Source: an uncultured Lachnospiraceae bacterium
GTDB lineage: Bacteria > Bacillota > Clostridia > Lachnospirales > Lachnospiraceae
Reading direction: 5' to 3'
Length of the DNA: 64,000 nucleotides
NCBI GenBank assembly: GCA_947245585.1
Contig: CAMXPV010000018.1
Coordinates: 8,682 to 72,681, forward strand
The notes under the pieces were generated by a model that saw nothing but the letters and a program-made list of their open reading frames with translations, did no database searches and had not been told where the DNA came from. Below are positions 44,806-57,427 of the stretch, piece by piece (the first letter of the stretch is position 1; the number at the start of each line of letters is the position of its first letter). The position numbers were made by a program, and so were the translations under genes.

Positions 44806-45480
44806 TCAAAACAACTGTACCGGTATCATGCTGTATGCCATGTCCCCGCTCTCCTGCGCGCAGACCGCCGTACAGTACCCCTCAATCTCCCGGTATTCTC
44901 TCATATAGTAGTATTTTGCGTCAAAAGAATGCCTTACCCTTGCCCTGCCAGACTCCTCGTCCATGTGGATCACAAAATCCTTTAAGGACAGGGACATCCC
45001 TCTTCCGATCGCCTTTAAAAAGCTCTCCTTCATGGTCCAGAGGCGAAACATCCGTTCTGTTCTCTCATCCTGTGTTTTCACATCGTAAAGCCATGCGAGT
45101 TCCTCCTCTGCAAAGAAACGGTCCGCCACCTTAAGCCGCCCTTCCTTCACATACTCAATATCATTTCCCACCGGCCTGTCCCCTATGGTGCAGATCGCAT
45201 AATCCCCGGAATGGGACAGGGAAAAACAAATTTCCGGATGGTATTTCAAGGTGGGTTTTCCCCACTCGCCGATCTCGTACTCCACGCTTCTTTCCTGCAG
45301 GCCGTAAACCGCAAGACCATGATCCAGGAGAAGCCCCGCTCCAAGACTTCTGTTCTTATCTTTTTCGTGCTGCAAAATGGCAATCTTCTGCTGCCTGTAC
45401 GGCGAGAGCCGCTTTAATTTTTCCCGAAACAGCGCCTCCCTTTCCAGACATCTGACATCCGCATAATACGTATGGATCAT
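44806..45480 (-). CDS. 4'-phosphopantetheinyl transferase (Sfp type)
   Basis: GKP, FSLSHSG, VGNDIE and WTMKESFLKA.G.G motifs; TAATG coupling to the helicase. Confidence 0.9.
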   Translation of the reverse strand: MIHTYYADVRCLEREALFREKLKRLSPYRQQKIAILQHEKDKNRSLGAGLLLDHGLAVYGLQERSVEYEIGEWGKPTLKYHPEICFSLSHSGDYAICTIGDRPVGNDIEYVKEGRLKVADRFFAEEELAWLYDVKTQDERTERMFRLWTMKESFLKAIGRGMSLSLKDFVIHMDEESGRARVRHSFDAKYYYMREYREIEGYCTAVCAQESGDMAYSMIPVQLF

Positions 45481-47498
45481 TATCCTTCCCTCTCCATCTT
45501 CCGATAGCACCGGTCGCAAACCGGATACGCAGCATTCCATGCAAGCGGTCTTCCACAGATGCGGCACTTCTTTTCAAACTGCCCCTTATCGTCCTTTAAC
45601 AGCTCCCCAATCTCATGTTGGGCCCACTCCCTGTTGGCGGCCACCTCGTCCTTGTCGATCACCCAACCCATTCTGGCCGAAAACTGCGTGTACAAGTCCA
45701 ACTGTTTGTAATAAGATTCCAACCCCTCCAGAGAAAAATCCCGCGGCAGCATAGGACAATTCTGCTGTTTTTCCGGTTTTTCGCAATAGCGCAGCCACAG
45801 CTTTAACACCTCCCTGTCCTTCACGTCAAAGGGACAGGTAATCAGGGTAAGCAGAAGCTTTCTGTCGTCCATATAGGGGATTTTCTTTCGGTAATCCCGC
45901 AAATACCGGTACTTATCCACGCTCTCCTTCATGGATATCTTATCGTACATGGGCGGATTTCCCGTCTTTTCCCACGCCTCTATGATCTGGTCAAGCTCTA
46001 TGTCAATGTCAAGCAAAATCTCAGGAAACCCGACCCGCGCTCTCCTGATCGGATAAAAAGGCTCCGCCAGTTTCCTGCCAACATAGTCCATGTCCATCGC
46101 GGACTGCACATAGCCGGTATCGTAAAACCCGTATCTTCCCGCCCGGCCTGCAATCTGCCTGATCTCCTCCGCCAAAAGCCGCCTCTTTCCCACGCCGTCA
46201 AACTTGGTCGTATTCATGAAGACCACCCTGCGGATCGGCAGATTGATTCCCATGCCGATGGCATCCGTGGCGACAACCACCTGATTGACCCCTTCCGTAA
46301 ACAGCCGTACCTGCTCCTGTCTGGTCTGCGGCGGCAGGTTTCCGTAAATCACGCTGGCCTTAATGCCGCGGCCCTCAAGGGCAGCCGCGATGGCAAGCAC
46401 ATTTTTCTTGGAGAAGGCAATCAGCGCATCTCCCTGTTCCACATCCGTGGCCATATCGTAGCGCTCCGGGACAAATACCAGTTTGGTATTCCGCTCGTGA
46501 CGGACAATTTCGATCTCGTCCCCGCAGCGTGTCAGCATCTTCGTCAAAATCTGCTCCGCCGTGCCGGAACAGCACACATGCACTTCACTGGCGCGAATAC
46601 CGAGGATCGCCCTGGTCCAGTAACTTCCCCTGCTCTCGTCCGCCATCATCTGCGCCTCGTCGATGACGGCGATATCATAGACCTCCCGGATATCCATAAT
46701 TTCCACCGTGGAAGCCTGCACAAAACTTCCCGGCGTGCGGATGCTCTCCTCACCGGTAACCATATCGCAGGGAATCCCGTCCGTCATCATACGGTCGTAA
46801 ACCTCCAGCGCCAAAAGGCGAAGAGGCCCAAGATAGATGCCGTGGTAGGCCTGCTTTAACCGCTGTAATGCCTCGTAGGTCTTGCCGCTGTTGGTGGGGC
46901 CCACATGGAGAATAAAATGCCGCTTCATGCCTCTGGCTTCCGGATACTGTTTCTCCGGCTCCGCCTCCATCAGCTCCTCGATCCGCTGTCCCACCAGATA
47001 CTGCATATATTCGTCTTTATAGATCTCGTAAAGCGACTTTGTCCGAAGAAGCGCAGCCGTCTTCTCCATCCCCGCCACGTCCTCCGGCACTGCCGAAGCC
47101 GCCATCCTTTTCAGAAAGCTGATATCCAGTCTGGCAAGGCGGCGCACCGCATAGCGGTATCTTTTCAGATACCTGGTATCCCGCAAAACCACCGTGTACC
47201 CGATCTGCGCCACTTTTTTATGTAATTCCTTCATGTCCCCAAGCACCTGATGGGTTTCCTGTTTTTTCTTTCGGGCGATCCGTCGTTCCAACTGCCCCAG
47301 CTGCTTTTCCACGCTTCTGGTAAACCTGCGGTTTTCCTCCTTCTGAAATGAGAAAAAGGCCTTCTCGTATGCCGCCCAGAGTTTTTTCGGAATGTCGTCC
47401 GGCTGCCCCTGTTTTTGCTGCGGGTCCTTATCTCCCGCTCTCTTCTCATCCTGCATTTTCGTACCTGTTTTTCTGCTTTTGTTAAAACTTCCTCTCAC
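45480..47498 (-). CDS. Suv3-like SF2 RNA helicase
   Basis: GPTNSGKT, GPLRLLA.EV, VIDEAQM, ATDAIGMGINL and QIAGRAGR motifs; the start may be 47456. Confidence 0.9.
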   Translation of the reverse strand: MRGSFNKSRKTGTKMQDEKRAGDKDPQQKQGQPDDIPKKLWAAYEKAFFSFQKEENRRFTRSVEKQLGQLERRIARKKKQETHQVLGDMKELHKKVAQIGYTVVLRDTRYLKRYRYAVRRLARLDISFLKRMAASAVPEDVAGMEKTAALLRTKSLYEIYKDEYMQYLVGQRIEELMEAEPEKQYPEARGMKRHFILHVGPTNSGKTYEALQRLKQAYHGIYLGPLRLLALEVYDRMMTDGIPCDMVTGEESIRTPGSFVQASTVEIMDIREVYDIAVIDEAQMMADESRGSYWTRAILGIRASEVHVCCSGTAEQILTKMLTRCGDEIEIVRHERNTKLVFVPERYDMATDVEQGDALIAFSKKNVLAIAAALEGRGIKASVIYGNLPPQTRQEQVRLFTEGVNQVVVATDAIGMGINLPIRRVVFMNTTKFDGVGKRRLLAEEIRQIAGRAGRYGFYDTGYVQSAMDMDYVGRKLAEPFYPIRRARVGFPEILLDIDIELDQIIEAWEKTGNPPMYDKISMKESVDKYRYLRDYRKKIPYMDDRKLLLTLITCPFDVKDREVLKLWLRYCEKPEKQQNCPMLPRDFSLEGLESYYKQLDLYTQFSARMGWVIDKDEVAANREWAQHEIGELLKDDKGQFEKKCRICGRPLAWNAAYPVCDRCYRKMEREG

Positions 47499-47658
47499 AT
47501 GATTTTCATTCTAATCATATCACATTTTAAGACCTTTGCGCAAACCTTTCCCCCTGTTAATATCTTCCCGCTTCCTGCCCTGTCCTTTCTTGATTTTATC
47601 CCAAGTTTGTTTTACAATGAAATCATATAAAATAAAGTAGGAAAAGAGGATTATTCCT

Positions 47659-48723
47659 GTGAAAAATGTCATTCTGGTGGTGGACGACGACAAGACCAAT
47701 CTGTCGCTCGCCCAACGTATTCTCGGACCGCAATACCGCATCGCTGCCTGCAACAGCGGCACGGCTGCCTTAACCTATCTGGAGACCCATCGTCCCGATC
47801 TGATTCTTTTGGATATCAATATGCCGGAAATGAACGGTTTTGAAGTCATGCAAAAAATCCGTTCCAACATACAGACCGAATTGATTCCCGTCATCTTCCT
47901 GACAGCGGACAATCTGGCGGAGACGGAGATCAAATGTTTCCAGTTGGGGGCGATGGATTTTGTGACCAAACCCTTTGTGCCAGACATTCTGTTAAGCCGC
48001 GTGAGCAAGACCATCGAGCTTGACCAGTATCGTCATCACCTGGAGGAGATGGTGAACGCGCAGGCAGAAAAAATCACGGAGGATGCCCTGCGTCTTGGCC
48101 GCATTCAGGATTCTGTCATCATCGGCATGGCCAACCTGATCGAAAGCCGCGACGGAAGCACCGGAAAACACGTCAAAAACACCCAGACTTACGTGGGCAT
48201 GATCGCCAACGAGCTTCTGTCCCGGGGCTATTTTACGGACGAGCTCACCCCCGCCTATATTGAGGATCTGTGCAAGGCAGCCCCTCTCCACGATGTGGGA
48301 AAAATCAAAATTCCCGATGCCATCCTGCAAAAACCCGGCAAGCTGACGACGGAAGAGTTTGAGACCATGAAGTTACATACCACCCACAGCCGGAAAATCA
48401 TTCAGACCATCATCGGAGACATCGAGGACGAGCACTATGTGCGGTTGGTGGAGGACATCGCCCTCTACCACCATGAGCGGTGGGACGGCACCGGCTATCC
48501 GGCCGGCCTCACGGAGGACAACATCCCGCTCTCCGCACGGATTATGGCTGTCGCCGACGTATTCGACGCCCTCTATGAGGAGCGCTGCTACAAACCGCCC
48601 GTCCGTCCCATCGAACGAATTATGCAGATCATGGCGGAGGGCCGCGGCACACAGTTTGACCCTGTCATCATCGACGTGTTTATGGACATGCTGCCGCAGC
48701 TGAAAAACATATTGGAAAAGTAA
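47659..48723 (+). CDS. RpfG-like response regulator with HD-GYP domain
   Basis: Receiver domain; HDVGK and HHERWDGTGYP motifs. Confidence 0.93.
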   Translation: MKNVILVVDDDKTNLSLAQRILGPQYRIAACNSGTAALTYLETHRPDLILLDINMPEMNGFEVMQKIRSNIQTELIPVIFLTADNLAETEIKCFQLGAMDFVTKPFVPDILLSRVSKTIELDQYRHHLEEMVNAQAEKITEDALRLGRIQDSVIIGMANLIESRDGSTGKHVKNTQTYVGMIANELLSRGYFTDELTPAYIEDLCKAAPLHDVGKIKIPDAILQKPGKLTTEEFETMKLHTTHSRKIIQTIIGDIEDEHYVRLVEDIALYHHERWDGTGYPAGLTEDNIPLSARIMAVADVFDALYEERCYKPPVRPIERIMQIMAEGRGTQFDPVIIDVFMDMLPQLKNILEK

Positions 48724-48744: not shown

Positions 48745-51531
48745 TTGGACAACACGCAGCTGAAAACGGAACGGAACGAAAAGAAACTGGAACGGATTGT
48801 ATTGGCGATCCTGAGTCTCTATGCCATCGCCGCCTTTCTCACAGGGCTGCTATCCGATTGGAGCATATTTATTCTGGAAATGATTTTTCTGCCGCCTCTT
48901 GTGGGTTGGTTTGTCCACGGGCGTGAATACTGGGATCACCCCAGACGGGCTTCTTTCATCAGTATTATGTGTTGGACGGAATTCATCATCTACGCCCTGT
49001 TTACCACAAGTTTTTCCTCCCTGCTCATCACTATGGCGGGAGTGATTGTGTTGTTGAGCATCTTTAACAGTAAACAGCTTCTCTATCCGGGATTCATCAT
49101 CCCGATTTTTCTCCTTTTATATCACGGCTTTATTGCAAAAACCATCGGCGTTAGCGGCCCCCGCGGCGCTCTGCGGCTCTTCGTCCAGTTTTTTTCCCTG
49201 TACACGGTTTCCTCTGTCATCTTAATTATCCAGAAAAACCGGCAGGAAGCCAGCGATCTTCTGGTGGACAACATCCGGGAGTTAGAGATCGCCGAGCGCA
49301 GCAAGGACGACTTTTTAGTCAACATTTCCCACGAGATCCGCACGCCCATCAATGCGGTCTGCGGCATGAGCGAGGCTATTTTACAGGAGGATCTTCCCAT
49401 AGACGTGCGCCGCGATGTGGTGGATATTCAAACCGCAGGCAGAAATCTCCTCTCCACGGTAAGCAATATTTTGGACTTCTCGGAACTTGAGACAGGACGG
49501 ATGGAACTGGCAGAGGAAAGCTACAACATCACCTCCACCATCACCGATATCATCAACATGGCATTGACCATGGACAACGGCAGGCATCTGGAGCTGATCG
49601 TGGACTGCGACACCGATCTGCCAAGCAATCTTTTGGGGGACGAGCAGAAATTCCGGCGCATTGTCATGAACCTGCTTGGCAACGCCATCAAATTTACCAG
49701 GGAGGGCGGCGTGATTCTGCGGATCAAAAGCCGCAGGGAGGAGTACGGCATCAACCTGCAAGTCAGCGTGAAGGACTCCGGCATCGGCATCGAGCGCGCC
49801 GACATGGAAAAAATCTTCACCAGTTTCAGCCAGGTCAACTCCAAAAGAAACAGGGAGGAGGGCGGCGTTGGTCTGGGTCTTGCCATCACGCAGGCCCTTG
49901 TCCGCAGCATGGGCGGCTTTTTGACGGTGGAGAGCACGCCCGGTACGGGCAGCGAATTCCGCTTTACCATTCCCCAAAAAGTGTTGGACGAGACGCCCAT
50001 CGTCTCCATCAAAGATAAGAGCCAGCTCTTTGCAGCCTGCTATATCAATCTTGACAAGTACGACTATACCGTAGTGCGTGAGGGCTATGAATCCTGTATG
50101 CAGCACATTGTCAGCCAGTTCGGTTTTCCCTTCCGCATCTGCCGGAATCTGGCGGAACTGAAACGGCGCATGGAGCGCGAGTCCTACACCCACATTTTCA
50201 TCGGTTGGGAGGAGTACAGCGAAGACCGCAGCTTCTTTGACCGACTTTCCAGGGAGAGGACCGTCGTGCTTTTGCTTGATTACGATCAGGAAATGTTGGT
50301 GCAGGGCAATATGCTCCGCATTTATAAGCCCTTCACGGTTTTGTCCATCGCCGCCGTCTTCAACGGGCAGAAAATTTTGAACGGCGAGGACCGGCAAACA
50401 AGTTTACATAATAAATTTATTGCCCCCCAGGCAAGCGTGCTTGTGGTGGACGACAACGCCATGAATTTAAAGGTCATGGCCAGACTGCTTCTGCCCTACC
50501 GGCTAAAGGTAACCATGGCCAGCAGCGGCCAGGAAGCGTTGGAAAAACTGAATGCGCCGGAGTTCGACTGCGTCTTCTTGGATCACATGATGCCGGACAT
50601 GGACGGCGTGGAAACATTACACAAGCTTCGGCAAAAACCCGGCCTGTACTACCAGTCCCTCCCCGTCATCGCCTTCACGGCCAACGCCATCGGCGGCGCC
50701 AGGGAAATGTTTATTGCCGAGGGATTCGACGACTTTATCGCCAAACCCATCGAACTGAGTGTGTTGGAGCGGATTCTCAGGCGCTATATCCCGACCCAGA
50801 TGCAGATTCCCGTGGAAGACGTGGAAGCAGCCCAGGCGGATACGCCGGAAAGCGAGACGGACCGGGGCCGTCTGCATCTGACCAGGGCAGGCGTCAACTT
50901 AGAACAGGCCCTTGCCTACTGCGGGGATGAAGACGGATTCCGGGAAATCATCGCCATCTTTCACGGGGAGGGCAAAAAGCGCCGGGAAAATCTGAACCAC
51001 TATTATCAGGAAGAGGATTGGAAAAATTACGTCATCTGCGTCCACGCCCTGAAGGGCAACGCCAAGGGCATCGGCGCAGGCGACCTCTCGGAGATGGCCA
51101 GAGAACTGGAAATGGCCGGCAAAGAAAACCGGATTGATTACATTCATGAACACCACGAGGAAATGATGGAAAGCCATGACCGGCTGCTTGCGGCACTCGA
51201 CGGCAATGTCTTTGTCTACCCTGACGGGGAGGGGCCTGCCTTAACCGCCGCCTCAGACGAGGCATCGCTGAAAACAGGCGGTGAGAAGGACACGGCCGAC
51301 ATGGAAACAGGCGGCGCAGCGGACGATTCCGCCCTGCAGACACTGCTTTCGCAGATCAGCGAAAAACTGTCCTCCTTTGAGAGCGAAGGGTTGGGCGAAC
51401 TGCTTGACCGACTGTCCGCCTCCCGTCACCAGGACGGTTCTCTCTCCCAGGCGGCGGAAGAAATACGGAAGATGACCTCCGACTTTGATTTTCTTGGTGC
51501 CTCTGAAATTCTGGAAAGGATAGGGAAATAA
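48745..51531 (+). CDS. Membrane hybrid histidine kinase (TM-HisKA-HATPase-REC-HPt)
   Basis: SHEIRTP, NLLGNAIKF, FLDHMMP and HALKG motifs. Confidence 0.93.
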   Translation: MDNTQLKTERNEKKLERIVLAILSLYAIAAFLTGLLSDWSIFILEMIFLPPLVGWFVHGREYWDHPRRASFISIMCWTEFIIYALFTTSFSSLLITMAGVIVLLSIFNSKQLLYPGFIIPIFLLLYHGFIAKTIGVSGPRGALRLFVQFFSLYTVSSVILIIQKNRQEASDLLVDNIRELEIAERSKDDFLVNISHEIRTPINAVCGMSEAILQEDLPIDVRRDVVDIQTAGRNLLSTVSNILDFSELETGRMELAEESYNITSTITDIINMALTMDNGRHLELIVDCDTDLPSNLLGDEQKFRRIVMNLLGNAIKFTREGGVILRIKSRREEYGINLQVSVKDSGIGIERADMEKIFTSFSQVNSKRNREEGGVGLGLAITQALVRSMGGFLTVESTPGTGSEFRFTIPQKVLDETPIVSIKDKSQLFAACYINLDKYDYTVVREGYESCMQHIVSQFGFPFRICRNLAELKRRMERESYTHIFIGWEEYSEDRSFFDRLSRERTVVLLLDYDQEMLVQGNMLRIYKPFTVLSIAAVFNGQKILNGEDRQTSLHNKFIAPQASVLVVDDNAMNLKVMARLLLPYRLKVTMASSGQEALEKLNAPEFDCVFLDHMMPDMDGVETLHKLRQKPGLYYQSLPVIAFTANAIGGAREMFIAEGFDDFIAKPIELSVLERILRRYIPTQMQIPVEDVEAAQADTPESETDRGRLHLTRAGVNLEQALAYCGDEDGFREIIAIFHGEGKKRRENLNHYYQEEDWKNYVICVHALKGNAKGIGAGDLSEMARELEMAGKENRIDYIHEHHEEMMESHDRLLAALDGNVFVYPDGEGPALTAASDEASLKTGGEKDTADMETGGAADDSALQTLLSQISEKLSSFESEGLGELLDRLSASRHQDGSLSQAAEEIRKMTSDFDFLGASEILERIGK

Positions 51532-51534
51532 CCG

Positions 51535-54228
51535 ATGCGTAAAAATATACAGCACTTTTTTCAGACGATGTTTTCCGGACAGCTCGACTTTAAGGAGCGA
51601 ATCAACCGCCTGGTCATGCTTCTGGTCTTTGCCTGCTCTGTGATCGGCGTCATTCTCGTTCTCTTAGGCGCTGACCACAGGGTTTTATATGCACTGCTGC
51701 CCATCGGTGCAATTTCCGGTCTTTCCATCCGGATCACCCTCAGGCAGCATAACAGCAGACAGGCTTCCTGGCTCCTCGCCATCGGCACCAACGTGGTCTT
51801 CTTTCCCCTGCTCTTTATCACAAGCGGCGGCACCCAGAGCGGTATGCCGGTGTGGTTTGTGTTGGGACTGGTTTATATTTTCCTTTTGTTTGAGGGACGC
51901 TCTTTTGCAATCGCCATGACCCTTTCCCTCCTGGCCTATCTGGGAACCTACCTGTTGGCCTACTACCGCCCGGAACTGATACCGGCCTCCACCCGCTTCT
52001 ACACTTTTTCAGACTCCTTTGTCGCGCTGATCTGTGTAAGCCTTTTTATCGGCATCCTCTTAAAACTGCAGTCCAAAACCTATGAACAGGAAAAGCAGAT
52101 TGCCGAACAGCAGCGCAGAGAGGTAGAACAGATTGCCCGCTCCAAGGACACCTTTTTCGCCAATATGAGCCATGAGATCCGCACCCCCATAAACACCATT
52201 ATCGGCCTGAATGAAATGATCCTGCGGGAAGATATCTCCGACGAGATTGCGGAGAATGCAATCAACATCCAAAACGCCAGTAAGATGCTGCTCACCACCA
52301 TCAATGACATTCTCGATCTCTCCAAACTGGAATCCGGCAAAATGGATATCATGCCAACCCAGTATGAGATCAGCTCCATGTTCAGCGATCTGGTCAATTT
52401 GATCTGGATTCGGGCACATCAGAAAAATCTGGAATTTAAAGTGGATATCGACCCGGAAATCCCCTCCATGCTCTACGGCGACGAGGTGCGGATCAAACAG
52501 ATCATCACCAATATGCTGACCAATGCAGTCAAATACACGGACTCCGGCTCCGTCACCCTGCACGCCAAGGGAGAGCGCGTCTCGGCGGATCAGATTCTGC
52601 TGCGCATCTCCGTGGAGGACACCGGCATGGGCATCCGCAAGGAAAGCCTGGACGATCTCTTCCGCTCCTTCAAGCGCGTGGACGAATCGGATAACCGAAA
52701 CATCGAGGGAACCGGTCTGGGACTTACCATATCCAAACAGCTCATAGAGATGATGGGCGGCAAAATCACTGTGGACAGCGTCTACCACAAGGGTTCCGTC
52801 TTTACCATCGAGTTACAGCAGCGCATCATCAATGTGCGCCCCATCGGCGTCATCAATTTCGCCGCCCAGAAACAATTGAGCAACCGGACCCGCTACCAAC
52901 AGAGCTTTATCGCTCCCGATGCCCGCATTCTGGTGGTGGACGACAACTCTATGAATCTGATGGTGGCAGTCAAACTCCTGCGGGATACCAAGGTAAAAGT
53001 GGATACGGCGGAAAGCGGCAGGGAAGCTCTGAAAAAGACAGCTCAGACCGCTTACCATGTGATCCTGATGGATCACATGATGCCGGATATGGACGGAGCC
53101 GCCACCCTGCGCGCCGTCCGCAGCCAGACAAAGGGGTTCTGTCAGAAAACTCCCGTCATCGCCCTGACCGCCAACGTGATGTCGGACGCGGAACAGGTCT
53201 ACCAGAACATGGGCTTCGACGGTTATCTGGCAAAACCGATCAGCGCGCCGCTTTTGGAAGCGGGCCTCCTAAAATACCTGCCCGCCGACCTGATCGAGTA
53301 TATGGCCCAACCGGAAGAGGCGGCCGAGGACAATATGGAAGGCATCAACCAGGTAAGCAGTCTCCGGAAACGAAAAATTGCCATCACGGCGGACTGTATC
53401 TGCGACCTTCCGGCGGATCTTCTTTCGCGTTTCCACATCCGCCTGATGTACTGCTATGTTCATACAAACGAGGGGCGCTTTTGCGATCTCTTTGAGATCT
53501 CCTCCGACAGTCTGCTGTCCTACCTCCAGACAGAGGGCAGCCACTCCCACTCCTCCACGGCTGATCCTTCCGAGTACGAGTATTTCTTTGCGGAGACATT
53601 GGCGGAGGCGGAACATGTCATTCACATCACCGCCACCGTGGATTTGAGCGGCGCTTATCCCAACGCAACCCAGGCCGCCAAAACCTTCGACAACGTCACT
53701 GTCATTGACTCGACCCACATCAGCAGCGGCCATGGCTTCATGGTTCTCTACGCCGCCATGTTGGCGGAGGAGGGCAAGAGCGTGGAAGAGATTTGTCTGG
53801 CAATGGAAGAATTCCGGGATCGCGTTTTCTCCAACTTCCTGGTGCCCAGCACCGCTACGCTCTACCGCAACGGCAAGGTGAGCGGCGGCGTCCACAGACT
53901 CTGTACCCTGTTAAATCTCCATCCGGTTCTGGCCATGTCCAAAAACCGTCTAAAGCTATGGCGCATGGAATCGGGCAGCATGCACCGGGTTGTCAGGCAG
54001 TATATTAAAAAGCTGTTTCAGCACAGTAACCAGATTGACACCCACATCCTCTTTGTCACTTACGCGGGATGCAGCGTGAAACAGCTCAACGAGATTGCAG
54101 AGATCGCTGAAAAATACATCCACTTTGACAAGGTGATCTTCCAGAAGGCCTCCGCCACCGTATCAAGCAACTGCGGCATCGGCACCTTCGGATTGATGTT
54201 TGTAAGGAAAGAAAAACAGGAGGCGTAA
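51535..54228 (+). CDS. Membrane hybrid histidine kinase with a C-terminal DegV domain
   Basis: SHEIRTP, HATPase and REC, then IAITADCICDLP...LSGAY...DS..ISSG.G...CG.G DegV pattern. Confidence 0.88.
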   Translation: MRKNIQHFFQTMFSGQLDFKERINRLVMLLVFACSVIGVILVLLGADHRVLYALLPIGAISGLSIRITLRQHNSRQASWLLAIGTNVVFFPLLFITSGGTQSGMPVWFVLGLVYIFLLFEGRSFAIAMTLSLLAYLGTYLLAYYRPELIPASTRFYTFSDSFVALICVSLFIGILLKLQSKTYEQEKQIAEQQRREVEQIARSKDTFFANMSHEIRTPINTIIGLNEMILREDISDEIAENAINIQNASKMLLTTINDILDLSKLESGKMDIMPTQYEISSMFSDLVNLIWIRAHQKNLEFKVDIDPEIPSMLYGDEVRIKQIITNMLTNAVKYTDSGSVTLHAKGERVSADQILLRISVEDTGMGIRKESLDDLFRSFKRVDESDNRNIEGTGLGLTISKQLIEMMGGKITVDSVYHKGSVFTIELQQRIINVRPIGVINFAAQKQLSNRTRYQQSFIAPDARILVVDDNSMNLMVAVKLLRDTKVKVDTAESGREALKKTAQTAYHVILMDHMMPDMDGAATLRAVRSQTKGFCQKTPVIALTANVMSDAEQVYQNMGFDGYLAKPISAPLLEAGLLKYLPADLIEYMAQPEEAAEDNMEGINQVSSLRKRKIAITADCICDLPADLLSRFHIRLMYCYVHTNEGRFCDLFEISSDSLLSYLQTEGSHSHSSTADPSEYEYFFAETLAEAEHVIHITATVDLSGAYPNATQAAKTFDNVTVIDSTHISSGHGFMVLYAAMLAEEGKSVEEICLAMEEFRDRVFSNFLVPSTATLYRNGKVSGGVHRLCTLLNLHPVLAMSKNRLKLWRMESGSMHRVVRQYIKKLFQHSNQIDTHILFVTYAGCSVKQLNEIAEIAEKYIHFDKVIFQKASATVSSNCGIGTFGLMFVRKEKQEA

Positions 54229-54241
54229 GCCTCCTGTTTTT
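54212..54241. terminator. Bidirectional intrinsic terminator
   Basis: AAAAACAGGAGGC-GTAA-GCCTCCTGTTTTT. Confidence 0.85.
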
Positions 54242-54256
54242 TATGATTTCTGCCCA

Positions 54257-54922: not shown

Positions 54923-57427
54923 TCAAAGCTGCTCTCCCGTCGTTTCCTGTCCATCTAGCGGAAACCGCACCGTCACCGTAAACAGATCCGCATCCGTCTC
55001 CACCGCAAATCTCCCGCCGCAGGCCTCCGTAAAACTCTTCGCAATGGAAAGTCCCAACCCGCTTCCGCCGTCCGTCCGGCTCTCATCGCCCCGCACAAAC
55101 CGCTCGGTAAAGTCCTTCTCCCCGGAAAGCTCCACACTGGAAGTATTCTTGATGCACGCCACCGCCTGTCCGTCCTCCTGTGTGAGCGCAAGATAAATTC
55201 TGGAGCCCGCCAGCGAATACCGCAAAGCATTCTGTAACAGATTCTGGAACACCCGGTAAAGCCTCTGGCCGTCCGCCAGTACCGACACAGGCGCATCGGG
55301 AATGGCCGTCCGCACCGTCAGTCCGCTCGCCTCAATCTTATCATTCATATCTGCCATGGTCTGGCGAAGAAGCTTGCCCATATCCAACAGTTCCATTTTG
55401 ATGGGAAGCTGTCCGGAGGTTGCCTTGCTGACCTCAAACACATCCTGCACAATGCCTCGCAGGCGTTCCGCCTTTTCCTCCAATATCTGAATATACTCCT
55501 TCACATGTTGGGGAAGGTTTTCTTCCTGACGCAACAGTTCCACATAGCTGACGATGGAGGTGAGGGGTGTCTTGATATCGTGGGACACATTGGTCACCAG
55601 ATCCACCTTCATGCGCTCACTCTTCATACGCTCCGCAAGCGCCGTCTCCATGCCCTTTTGTATCTGGTTTAAGTTTTCCGCCGCTTCCCGCAAATCGGTG
55701 TCCTCAGACAAAACCAACTCCTGCGTCAAATTGCCTTCCCGCACCGCAAGGATCTGGTCTGTCAGCGCGCCGATCTCTCTGGCCAGCCGATGGTTTTTCT
55801 TTAAACTGACTACCGTTATCGCGGTAAAGACAAACAGCGCGGTAAAAATCACACAGGCTGTCAGCATATAGGCATCCCCTATGGAAAAGGAATAGCCCAT
55901 CTCTTCCGCTACCGCCTCATATACACTTACATCATACGCTACGTCGTAAGCATAGCCTCCCGTAAGCCAGTTAGACAACTCCTCCTGATAAATCCAGAGC
56001 GCACAGAGCGCCGCCGCAAACAACAGCAAAAGACTCATTTCCGCAATCAGCGTGCGCCGCTGTCTTTTCACCAACCGTTTCTGAATCGGATATTGAAAGT
56101 CCTTTTCCTTCAATAAATCAAAAACAGGGGTTTTCTGCTTTTTTCTGTTGATCCGAAAGTCCAGTACGGCCAGATAGAAAAGCCAGAACCAGAGGGCCAG
56201 ATATGCGCCGGCCTTTGTCATCCTTGCGATCTCATAGATATAATCGCCGCTCCAGTTATAGTAGGAAAGTCCGTTTCTGATCCACCAGCCAAGCTGTCCC
56301 AACACACCCCCACTCATTCCTGTGAGAAGCACCACCAGGACAAGCGAAATGAGAATCTTGACCTCCAGGCAGATCTTCCCCAACAAGTCTGCAATCCGTT
56401 CCACCGCCTGTCTTCTGCTCTTTCGCATCAGAAAAGCGATCGCCAGAAGCAGTATGGCGGTTGACATAACAATACCAATCCGTTCTGCCGCGCTGTTTAA
56501 AGTATTCAAATTCTGCTGCATCTGGTACATCCTGCCGCCATACTGGGCAGTATGACTGCTCCCGTCGCTTTTTACCCGATACAGTTTCGGGTCTTTGGCC
56601 GCCGCCAGAAAGATCACCGCATCCTTTGTCGATTCTCCTATGGTATAGTTGGCGTAACCCGGCACCCACCAACGGCTGTTTTCACTGAACATGCCGTCGC
56701 CGTACACTTCATCGTACACATCCTCCTGCAGGCCGTCCTTCGTGATCTCCACCCTGCCGTCGCCGCCCCTGTTAAACCAGAGCGTAAAATTATAGACATT
56801 CTTATCTAGCGACTCATAGAAATCTGCGCCTGTCCATTCCTCCCCCGCCTTTTCCGTAAAACCGTCGATATTGGAATAGAGGAGCTTATTCTGATAGATG
56901 ACCGCGTAACGCAGGTTTTTGTTCTGTGCCATATCCGCCATATAGCGGTCCAGGATTTCCGGATCGCTGTAATAATAGCCGCTGTAATTGCCGCCCTCGC
57001 TCGCATATCCATATCCCATGTCGGCCATCATTTCCTCATAGTACGTCTGCTGTTCCGCAAGATAGGCCTCATAGTCGTCCCAGTTGCCGCCAAAATCCTC
57101 TATGGTTACCGAGGTTACCGGACCGCCATCAGCCTCCGCAGACTCCTCCACCGCGTACTGCTCCACGCCAGTCACCTCCGACACCGAAGAATCGCCGCGG
57201 TAAGCTTTTCCCCCGGTGGCCACCCCCAACAGATCAGAAAGCTTCTCGCTGATCAGGTAGCGGAACTCCCCGCTCTCCTGATAGTCCATCGGCCCATGAA
57301 AGACCTCCATGCTAAAGGCCGCCGCCATACCCGCAGCCGGAACCAAATTTGTGACCACCATGGTCAATCCCATAACAAAAGTCAAAAAGCTGATTGCAAT
57401 TTTACATTTTTTCCATTTTGTATCCAA
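54923..57427 (-). CDS. Membrane sensor histidine kinase
   Basis: NVSHDIKTPL, NLLQNALRY, FVRGD.SR and GLGLSIA motifs. Confidence 0.93.
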   Translation of the reverse strand: MDTKWKKCKIAISFLTFVMGLTMVVTNLVPAAGMAAAFSMEVFHGPMDYQESGEFRYLISEKLSDLLGVATGGKAYRGDSSVSEVTGVEQYAVEESAEADGGPVTSVTIEDFGGNWDDYEAYLAEQQTYYEEMMADMGYGYASEGGNYSGYYYSDPEILDRYMADMAQNKNLRYAVIYQNKLLYSNIDGFTEKAGEEWTGADFYESLDKNVYNFTLWFNRGGDGRVEITKDGLQEDVYDEVYGDGMFSENSRWWVPGYANYTIGESTKDAVIFLAAAKDPKLYRVKSDGSSHTAQYGGRMYQMQQNLNTLNSAAERIGIVMSTAILLLAIAFLMRKSRRQAVERIADLLGKICLEVKILISLVLVVLLTGMSGGVLGQLGWWIRNGLSYYNWSGDYIYEIARMTKAGAYLALWFWLFYLAVLDFRINRKKQKTPVFDLLKEKDFQYPIQKRLVKRQRRTLIAEMSLLLLFAAALCALWIYQEELSNWLTGGYAYDVAYDVSVYEAVAEEMGYSFSIGDAYMLTACVIFTALFVFTAITVVSLKKNHRLAREIGALTDQILAVREGNLTQELVLSEDTDLREAAENLNQIQKGMETALAERMKSERMKVDLVTNVSHDIKTPLTSIVSYVELLRQEENLPQHVKEYIQILEEKAERLRGIVQDVFEVSKATSGQLPIKMELLDMGKLLRQTMADMNDKIEASGLTVRTAIPDAPVSVLADGQRLYRVFQNLLQNALRYSLAGSRIYLALTQEDGQAVACIKNTSSVELSGEKDFTERFVRGDESRTDGGSGLGLSIAKSFTEACGGRFAVETDADLFTVTVRFPLDGQETTGEQL

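Follow-up and report, generated by a model that had tools for sequence, protein, structure and literature searches.

DegV-family proteins are, to our knowledge, known only as the fatty-acid carriers (FakB) of the Fak kinase. Here, we analyzed a 64,000-nucleotide (nt) stretch of DNA from an uncultured Lachnospiraceae bacterium (GenBank assembly GCA_947245585.1, contig CAMXPV010000018.1, positions 8,682 to 72,681 of the forward strand; the whole stretch is called the window below). In this window, a DegV domain forms the C-terminal part of a membrane-bound hybrid histidine kinase, further referred to as the DegV kinase. In FakB2, Thr61, Ser93 and His266 make up a network of hydrogen bonds by which the carboxylate of the fatty acid is held (PMC10848957, PMC8892158). 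Arg170 of FakB is located at the mouth of the tunnel and is essential to Fak kinase activity, and Leu181 together with Arg202 takes part in the docking of FakA (PMC10848957). FakB proteins require bound lipid for stability and sample lipid at the membrane surface (PMC8892158). The domain described here shares the two-lobed EDD fold, over its full length, with Staphylococcus aureus FakB1 and FakB2, Streptococcus suis FakB2 (7W7H) and the Thermus thermophilus protein 2DT8, and it keeps the hydroxyl equivalents of Thr61 and Ser93. It differs from them in several respects. FakB is a free carrier of about 280 amino acids (aa), whereas this domain is fused to a membrane kinase. The counterparts of His266, Arg170 and Arg202 are Asn, Lys and Ser, respectively, and the domain belongs to a clade, named NCG here, that is separate from the canonical FakBs which these genomes also encode and is linked to phosphorelay genes and not to fakA.

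Phosphorelays in which more than one kinase uses the same histidine phosphotransfer (HPt) domain are the next systems to be compared. The Vibrio kinases LuxN, LuxQ and CqsS converge on LuxU, Pseudomonas aeruginosa LadS uses the HPt of GacS, and RcsC and RcsD act in one relay. As in these cases, the locus in the window combines two hybrid kinases carrying different sensors with one HPt, and one of the kinases is HPt-less. RcsC also resembles the partner kinase described below in having an extra receiver-like domain within the kinase. However, there is no orthology beyond generic domains, the DegV module and a pseudo-receiver without the phospho-acceptor Asp are specific to the present system, and its output would be an HD-GYP or GGDEF enzyme and not a transcription factor.

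Two further comparisons concern the sensing of small molecules and lipids. In DhaQ/DhaS of Lactococcus lactis (2IU6) and DhaK/DhaL-DhaR of Escherichia coli, a member of the DhaK/DegV fold is not used as an enzyme subunit but as the small-molecule-sensing partner of a regulator, which is the role proposed here for the DegV domain. Those proteins are paralogous to Dha kinases, and what they control are transcription factors, whereas here a domain of the DegV branch is placed within a His-Asp phosphorelay. A functional tie of fatty-acid or membrane status to a sensor kinase is exemplified by DesK of Bacillus subtilis, a lipid-responsive sensor kinase. The S. aureus SaeRS system, which is inhibited by free fatty acids upon FakA loss, is another example (PMC5539427). 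In both of them, unlike in the arrangement proposed for the DegV kinase, the membrane part of the kinase senses the lipid and a lipid-binding protein domain is not part of the kinase. Full-text literature searches revealed no study of DegV fused to kinases, receivers or HPt domains, or tied to cyclic di-GMP (c-di-GMP); only unrelated mentions of stand-alone DegV proteins were found.

Domain Architecture and Fold of the DegV Kinase

The sequence-only reading, an earlier annotation of the window, had assigned to the DegV kinase the order transmembrane (TM) sensor-HisKA-HATPase-REC-DegV. This architecture was confirmed for the 897-aa protein by Pfam profiles, a hydropathy scan and the NCBIfam DegV model TIGR00762 (the coordinates of all features are given in Table 1). 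About six TM helices were found within residues 26-176. Since they are joined only by short loops, the sensor region is membrane-embedded and has no periplasmic domain. The core residues of a histidine kinase are in place, namely His213 of the H-box, the N-box at 330, the G1 motif (DxGxG) at 362 and the G2 motif (GxGxG) at 392. The active site of the receiver is also complete, with the acidic pair DD469-470, the Asp of the LMDHMMP motif (at about 513), Thr545 and Lys567. With this full set of catalytic residues, the protein is predicted to be an active hybrid histidine kinase. The scores obtained with the hybrid-kinase equivalog models of NCBIfam were all far below the respective cut-offs.

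The C-terminal domain matched PF02645 with 151.9 bits (cut-off 27) over positions 1-279 of the 280 in the model, and TIGR00762 with 161.4 bits (cut-off 99.7; E 2.6e-47). Its AlphaFold2 model, built on 54 sequences, reached a pLDDT of 94.8 and a pTM of 0.91. The 45 best Foldseek matches of the model were all DegV/FakB structures, with TM-scores of 0.76-0.90. The fatty-acid-loaded crystal structures 2DT8, 4X9X, 5UTO and 7W7H chain E matched at 0.83-0.90, and the DhaK/DhaQ-type structures 2IU6 and 3CT4 gave weak fold matches. The domain thus belongs to the DegV family by both profile and fold.

Pocket Residues and Phylogeny of the NCG Clade

A search with the DegV domain covered 1.84 billion cluster representatives. 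Of its 150 best matches, taken as clusters at 50% identity, 93 carry a kinase, a receiver or an HPt; these are called fused members. The position of FakB Thr61 is occupied by S673, and Ser or Thr is kept there across the clade. An alternative assignment of Thr61 to T675, obtained from a gapped phmmer alignment, was dropped in favour of the ungapped S673 register supported by the alignment of the clade. The Ser93 position corresponds to S705 (Ser or Gly across the clade), and the Leu181 equivalent is Leu or Phe. In the case of His266, the corresponding residue is N879, and Asn is found in 73 of the 93 fused members. It is part of the clade-wide motif QKASAT[VI]SxNCGxG, from which the name NCG was taken. 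The Arg170 position is occupied by K781; Lys is kept in close orthologues, and among the fused members we counted Arg in 35, Tyr in 13, Lys in 9, Leu in 9 and Gln in 7. The Arg202 position is occupied by S813, is hydrophobic or small in the clade, and adjoins the near-invariant Gly814. The Thr61/Ser93/His266 network is incomplete, and Arg170 and Arg202 are both replaced. Judged by its residues, the domain should probably not be filed as a FakB, because three features that define FakB fail in it.

The same genome encodes FakA and two canonical stand-alone DegV proteins, recognized by the motifs TSQP/TSQV, GGRI[TS], ART/IRT and H[IT]GPG. The fakA gene is located on another contig with one canonical fakB beside it, and the NCG-DegV domain is not linked to it. 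All three stand-alone DegVs of the genome have Arg at the Arg170 position. As the MAFFT alignment was unreliable around positions 806-821 for the genome's own FakBs, their motifs were examined directly. The third stand-alone DegV was found at 24270-25145 on the minus strand of the window, where the sequence-only reading had placed a separate DegV. This frame encodes 291 aa (Pfam DegV, E 8e-58) and its motifs are atypical: SSCP stands for TSQP and NGRLS for GGRIS, and a pattern search for H-x-G-P-G in it was negative.

A quick maximum-likelihood tree with SH-aLRT support was calculated for 73 DegV domains; it was used for the grouping of sequences, and the rooting and the order of fusions were not interpreted. 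The 58 relay-associated DegVs were separated from the 15 other stand-alone DegVs by a branch of length 0.9 with an SH-aLRT support of 100. The latter group consisted of 12 proteins from other genomes of the family and the three of this genome, at least two of which are canonical FakBs. Within the relay-associated group, the fused forms were nested among close stand-alone forms. Among orthologues of the DegV kinase, the identity was 51% in the TM region, about 72% in the DegV domain, 79% in the receiver and 87% in the kinase core, so the TM sensor region is the fastest-evolving part and the kinase core the most conserved one. This gradient is the pattern of a functional accessory domain. The DegV fold is intact and under purifying selection.

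These data bear on the proposal, made in the sequence-only reading, that the domain binds fatty acids in the FakB manner for the Fak system. With an intact fold, and with the network retaining its S/T and Ser positions, the sensing of a fatty acid stays plausible. The assignment to the Fak system is not supported as it was put, given the separate clade, the replaced His266, Arg170 and Arg202, and the canonical FakBs encoded elsewhere in the genome.

The Operon, the Partner Kinase and Its Pseudo-Receiver

The DegV kinase is encoded by the last gene of an operon in the order REC-HD-GYP, TM-HK-pseudoREC-REC-HPt and TM-HK-REC-DegV (HK, histidine kinase). Gaps of 21 nt and 3 nt separate the three genes, and a terminator follows the last one; the operon behind an HD-GYP regulator and an HPt-containing hybrid kinase, which the earlier annotation had recognized, was therefore borne out. 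A purine-rich stretch resembling a ribosome-binding site precedes each start, with AAGAGG in front of the GTG start of the first gene. Since both flanking genes lie on the opposite strand, the gaps are small and a terminator is present, the three genes form a self-contained operon. In the first protein, the HD-GYP motifs are unbroken (HD at 211 and HHERWDGTGYP at 271), and it is predicted to be a c-di-GMP phosphodiesterase. This REC-HD-GYP regulator is the likely output of the relay.

The second gene codes for the partner hybrid kinase, which retains His196 and, in its HPt, His767; this HPt is the only one in the operon. The TM regions of the partner kinase and the DegV kinase are unrelated in sequence, and the idea that the two sensors are duplicates of each other was rejected for this reason. 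Neither of the two TM regions gave a credible Pfam match at E values up to 10.

The partner kinase contains an additional domain of about 130 residues between its ATPase and its receiver. In a Pfam search at E up to 10, which included the REC model, this domain had no credible match. Its AlphaFold2 model (pLDDT 78) showed a (beta-alpha)5 fold, and every top Foldseek match was a receiver domain, each of them weak (TM-score 0.5-0.65). The end of strand beta3 lacks the phospho-acceptor Asp that a receiver has. The residues R30, H68, Y76 and P114 (domain numbering) are invariant. We call the domain a pseudo-receiver, because it has a receiver-like fold but no phospho-acceptor Asp.

The pseudo-receiver was present in 61 of 401 Lachnospiraceae genomes, a sample with one genome per genus, and gave 71 matches in them. 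About 62 of the 71 were followed, within 4 kb and on the same strand, by an NCG-DegV coding region. The kinase with the pseudo-receiver and NCG-DegV therefore make up a near-obligate pair. The pseudo-receiver, this pairing and one HPt common to two kinases (the sharing being presumed) all go beyond the earlier annotation of the window. As far as we can see, the frequency of the pairing, the stand-alone substitutes and the migrating HPt described below, and the recognition of the domain as an Asp-less receiver have been taken further here.

Conservation of the Module and Its Variants

The three-gene operon was kept in about 65 orthologous loci, and the HD-GYP gene was the best-conserved neighbour (63-95% identity). 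In each of eight variant loci, a partner-type kinase gene immediately precedes that of the DegV kinase, and the pseudo-receiver kinase was the direct upstream neighbour of the DegV gene at every locus inspected. Stand-alone NCG-DegV genes (283-289 aa) were found in three genomes, where they occupy the place of the DegV kinase just behind the partner kinase. Most of the inspected pairs had exactly one HPt. It is located on the partner kinase here and in a second Clostridia family; in other loci it was carried by the DegV kinase, by a small protein of its own or by the regulator. One HPt per pair was the rule in the majority of the loci inspected, although not in every one of them.

The regulators that adjoin the variant loci were REC-GGDEF, REC-GGDEF-REC, REC-REC-HD-GYP and HPt-REC-HD-GYP proteins and a 252-aa protein, denoted X-REC, which is conserved and follows HPt-bearing DegV kinases in four genomes. 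The C-terminal half of X-REC is a receiver, and its N-terminal part of about 130 residues gave no credible Pfam match at E up to 10. The relay may use X-REC as an alternative output. A link to the turnover of c-di-GMP had been suggested from the single locus. With HD-GYP as the best-conserved neighbour and HD-GYP or GGDEF genes beside variants, this suggestion has been strengthened.

Distribution of the DegV Fusion

A search with the DegV part against proteins of the fused length yielded 625 protein clusters. The best 120 of them all had the HisKA-HATPase-REC-DegV architecture and, wherever named, came from Lachnospiraceae; in the database, the fused proteins are labelled only as "DegV family EDD domain-containing protein". 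Full-length relatives, down to 40% identity, were found in at least 70 GTDB species (contigs from one genome per species). They include the cultured isolates Bacterium 1xD42-87 and Lachnospiraceae bacterium NC2004 and many metagenome-assembled genomes (MAGs) from the gut of mouse, rabbit and ruminants. A contiguous REC+DegV frame (E <=1e-84) occurred in about 50 of the 401 Lachnospiraceae genomes, several of which had two or three paralogues. In the class-level sample, the fusion was detected in one further Clostridia family (two genomes), and in the phylum sample of 144 families it was found only in Lachnospiraceae.

This distribution disposes of the possibility, raised together with the sequence-only reading, that the fusion is an artefact of a single strain. 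An error of assembly or gene calling, or a strain-specific accident, has a practically negligible probability. The reading frame is uninterrupted, the AlphaFold2 confidence is high, and the fusion occurs widely, including in isolates; nothing was found in favour of an artefact.

The commonest variant is TM-HK-REC-DegV of about 890 aa. Pfam analysis of the others revealed dCache-HK-REC-DegV, TM-HK-REC-DegV-HPt (about 1150 aa), DegV-TM-HK-REC-HPt (about 1040 aa), DegV-dCache-HK-REC-HPt (1568 aa) and HK-DegV without REC. The forms REC-DegV(-HPt) and DegV-HPt were seen on short metagenome contigs and may in part be cut-off gene calls. Such free placement of DegV within proteins resembles that of sensor modules (PAS, GAF) and argues against a tie to one adjoining domain.

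Two loci deserve a separate remark. At L104:6684-9363 (+) of genome G332, the TM-HK-REC part (631 aa) and the DegV part (257 aa) of the DegV kinase are two genes lying 10 nt apart, through either natural fission or a frameshift. In a MAG labelled as Kineothrix (L048:9813-10673 (+)), the DegV part of the orthologue is interrupted by an in-frame stop, possibly because of a sequencing error or because the gene is a pseudogene.

Proposed Mechanism and Alternative Explanations

We lean, with modest confidence, towards a role of the DegV domain as a lipid- or amphiphile-sensing regulatory module in a two-kinase, one-HPt relay that controls c-di-GMP, and not as a FakB carrier. In favour of it are the intact fold under purifying selection, the free placement of the domain within proteins, the replaced FakB residues in a genome that keeps FakA and canonical FakBs, the conserved pairing with the pseudo-receiver kinase and, in most pairs, a single HPt, the HD-GYP or GGDEF neighbours and the tight, terminator-bounded operon. 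In the proposed mechanism, the domain would be a cytoplasmic, membrane-proximal ligand-binding module, the ligand of which is most likely a fatty-acid-like lipid or amphiphile. The DegV kinase would form one half of a dedicated two-kinase phosphorelay, in which the receivers of both kinases would pass the phosphoryl group to a single HPt, at His767 of the partner kinase. Convergence on this HPt is suggested because both kinases are catalytically complete and have receivers and the operon has only one HPt. His767 would then phosphorylate the REC-HD-GYP regulator, setting the hydrolysis of c-di-GMP. The ligand state of DegV would gate the phosphoryl flux, possibly by contact with the pseudo-receiver of the partner kinase. 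In such a relay, c-di-GMP would be tied to the lipid status of the membrane or the cell, with two more inputs at the level of the membrane coming from the TM sensor regions, which are unrelated to each other.

Several points weigh against this interpretation. Of the residues by which FakB holds the carboxylate, two differ here, so the pocket may accept another molecule or none that can be exchanged. The transfer from the receiver of the DegV kinase to the HPt of its partner comes from domain bookkeeping only, and the contact between DegV and the pseudo-receiver from co-occurrence only. One locus (L096) has additional HPts, one as part of the adjoining HPt-REC-HD-GYP regulator and one in a kinase encoded upstream. 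Finally, some variants adjoin X-REC regulators, so c-di-GMP may not be the sole output.

The main rival explanation, which we regard as unlikely, is that NCG-DegV is a ligand-independent adaptor. It would be a pseudo-carrier, perhaps with a permanent structural lipid, offering a docking surface that joins both kinases (e.g., via the pseudo-receiver) and reporting no metabolite. The near-obligate pairing with the pseudo-receiver kinase would fit such a function, as would the stand-alone NCG-DegV genes that substitute for a whole DegV kinase behind the partner kinase and the relaxation of the FakB carboxylate and kinase residues in the clade. The requirement of FakB for lipid for its stability (PMC8892158) means that a bound lipid could be purely structural. 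However, the S/T at the Thr61 position and the clade-specific Asn of the pocket-mouth motif are conserved more strongly than a scaffold needs, and the free position of DegV within proteins is typical of sensor domains. A quite improbable alternative is that DegV is an output of the FakB type: phosphorylation of the receiver would control the uptake or release of a fatty acid by DegV, or the access of FakA, and in this way the incorporation of exogenous fatty acids. The REC-then-DegV order does resemble a response regulator with its output domain, FakA is present in the genome, and the DegV fold is FakB-like. Against this, Arg202 and Arg170 are not conserved, His266 is Asn, in some variants DegV is far from REC or stand-alone, and there is no linkage to fakA, which adjoins a canonical fakB on another contig.

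Direct phosphoryl chemistry was considered as well, and we treat it as speculation of very low probability. An acyl-phosphate held by DegV (the product of Fak or PlsX) would serve as a phosphodonor to REC or HPt, or the reverse reaction would occur, and the pool of acyl-phosphate would be read out directly by the relay. Small acyl phosphates can serve receivers as phosphodonors for autophosphorylation, FakB is left with acyl-phosphate once FakA has reacted, and in the related Dha kinases EDD-fold proteins participate in phosphoryl transfer. The weak fold matches of DegV to DhaK/DhaQ and the frequent position of DegV next to REC or HPt are in line with this idea. On the other hand, the DegV-before-TM and stand-alone forms put DegV away from REC/HPt in sequence, and the positive residue at the Arg170 position, expected to help in holding phosphate, is not conserved.

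The sensing role of the DegV domain can be extended to the whole NCG clade, which we offer as a possible but somewhat doubtful scenario. The clade would be a dedicated signalling module drawn entirely out of fatty-acid metabolism. Loaded with a lipid derived from the membrane or with an acyl-phosphate, it would dock to the pseudo-receiver of the partner kinase and gate transfer to the shared HPt, and the status of host or dietary lipid, or of the cell's own phospholipid synthesis, would be conveyed directly to c-di-GMP in gut Lachnospiraceae. If this is true, two-component systems would gain in NCG-DegV a new class of lipid sensor domain, cytoplasmic and on a par with PAS or GAF. As dominant commensals of the gut, Lachnospiraceae are exposed to lipids from diet and host, and a lipid-to-c-di-GMP sensor, if confirmed, would give them a route to adjust motility, adhesion or biofilm to these lipids. 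A whole branch of the DegV family is wired into His-Asp phosphorelays, comprising at least 93 clusters at 50% identity; about one in eight of the sampled genera of Lachnospiraceae have it, as does one further family of Clostridia. The near-obligate pairing with the pseudo-receiver and the wandering single HPt provide clear handles for biochemistry.

Feature Coordinates and Flanking Genes

Table 1. Features of the DegV kinase operon (positions in the window; residue numbers refer to the respective protein) and loci of the X-REC protein in other genomes.
Feature	Position	Strand	Description
Two overlapping sigma-70-like promoter matches (weak evidence)	47590..47638	+	9/12 consensus matches each
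REC + HD-GYP regulator, predicted c-di-GMP phosphodiesterase	47659..48723	+	Response_reg 5-115 (1.5e-29), HD_5 158-336 (9e-33)
Partner hybrid kinase	48745..51531	+	TM sensor, HisKA 187-251, HATPase 298-412, pseudo-receiver, REC 565-677, Hpt 734-805
Asp-less pseudo-receiver ("mid" domain)	49990..50424	+	Between ATPase and receiver of the partner kinase, ~130 residues
DegV kinase, open reading frame	51535-54228	+	897 aa, uninterrupted frame, ATG start
Membrane-embedded sensor region of the DegV kinase	51535..52104	+	Hydropathy scan
Histidine kinase core (HisKA + HATPase_c)	52144..52821	+	Pfam
HisKA of the DegV kinase	residues 204-268		Pfam E 5e-16
HATPase_c of the DegV kinase	residues 315-429		Pfam E 7e-26
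Receiver (Response_reg) of the DegV kinase	52927..53256	+	Residues 465-574, Pfam E 1e-22
DegV (EDD-fold, FakB-like) domain, NCG clade	53374..54207	+	Residues 614-891, Pfam E 2.9e-44
Intrinsic terminator	54211..54242	+	14-bp stem, 6 GC pairs, T-run; overlaps stop codon 54226-54228
X-REC protein, ~252 aa	L094:10396-11154	+	After an HPt-bearing DegV kinase
X-REC protein, ~252 aa	L093:7386-8156	-	After an HPt-bearing DegV kinase
X-REC protein, ~252 aa	L098:9928-10686	+	After an HPt-bearing DegV kinase
X-REC protein, ~252 aa	L100:4593-5351	-	After an HPt-bearing DegV kinase

The promoter-like matches are situated in the 160-nt gap between a divergent gene for a Suv3-like helicase and the GTG start of the regulator, and the number of such sites found was not above the expectation from shuffled sequence. 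The region 44806-47498 on the minus strand codes for this Suv3-like DEXQ helicase (672 aa) and an Sfp-type 4'-phosphopantetheinyl transferase, with an alpha/beta hydrolase beyond; these neighbours have no evident link to the relay. The convergent gene downstream of the operon (54923-57427, minus strand) encodes a third histidine kinase of 834 aa, with HisKA at residues 607-672 and HATPase at 719-825 behind an N-terminal part of about 600 residues that had no Pfam match.

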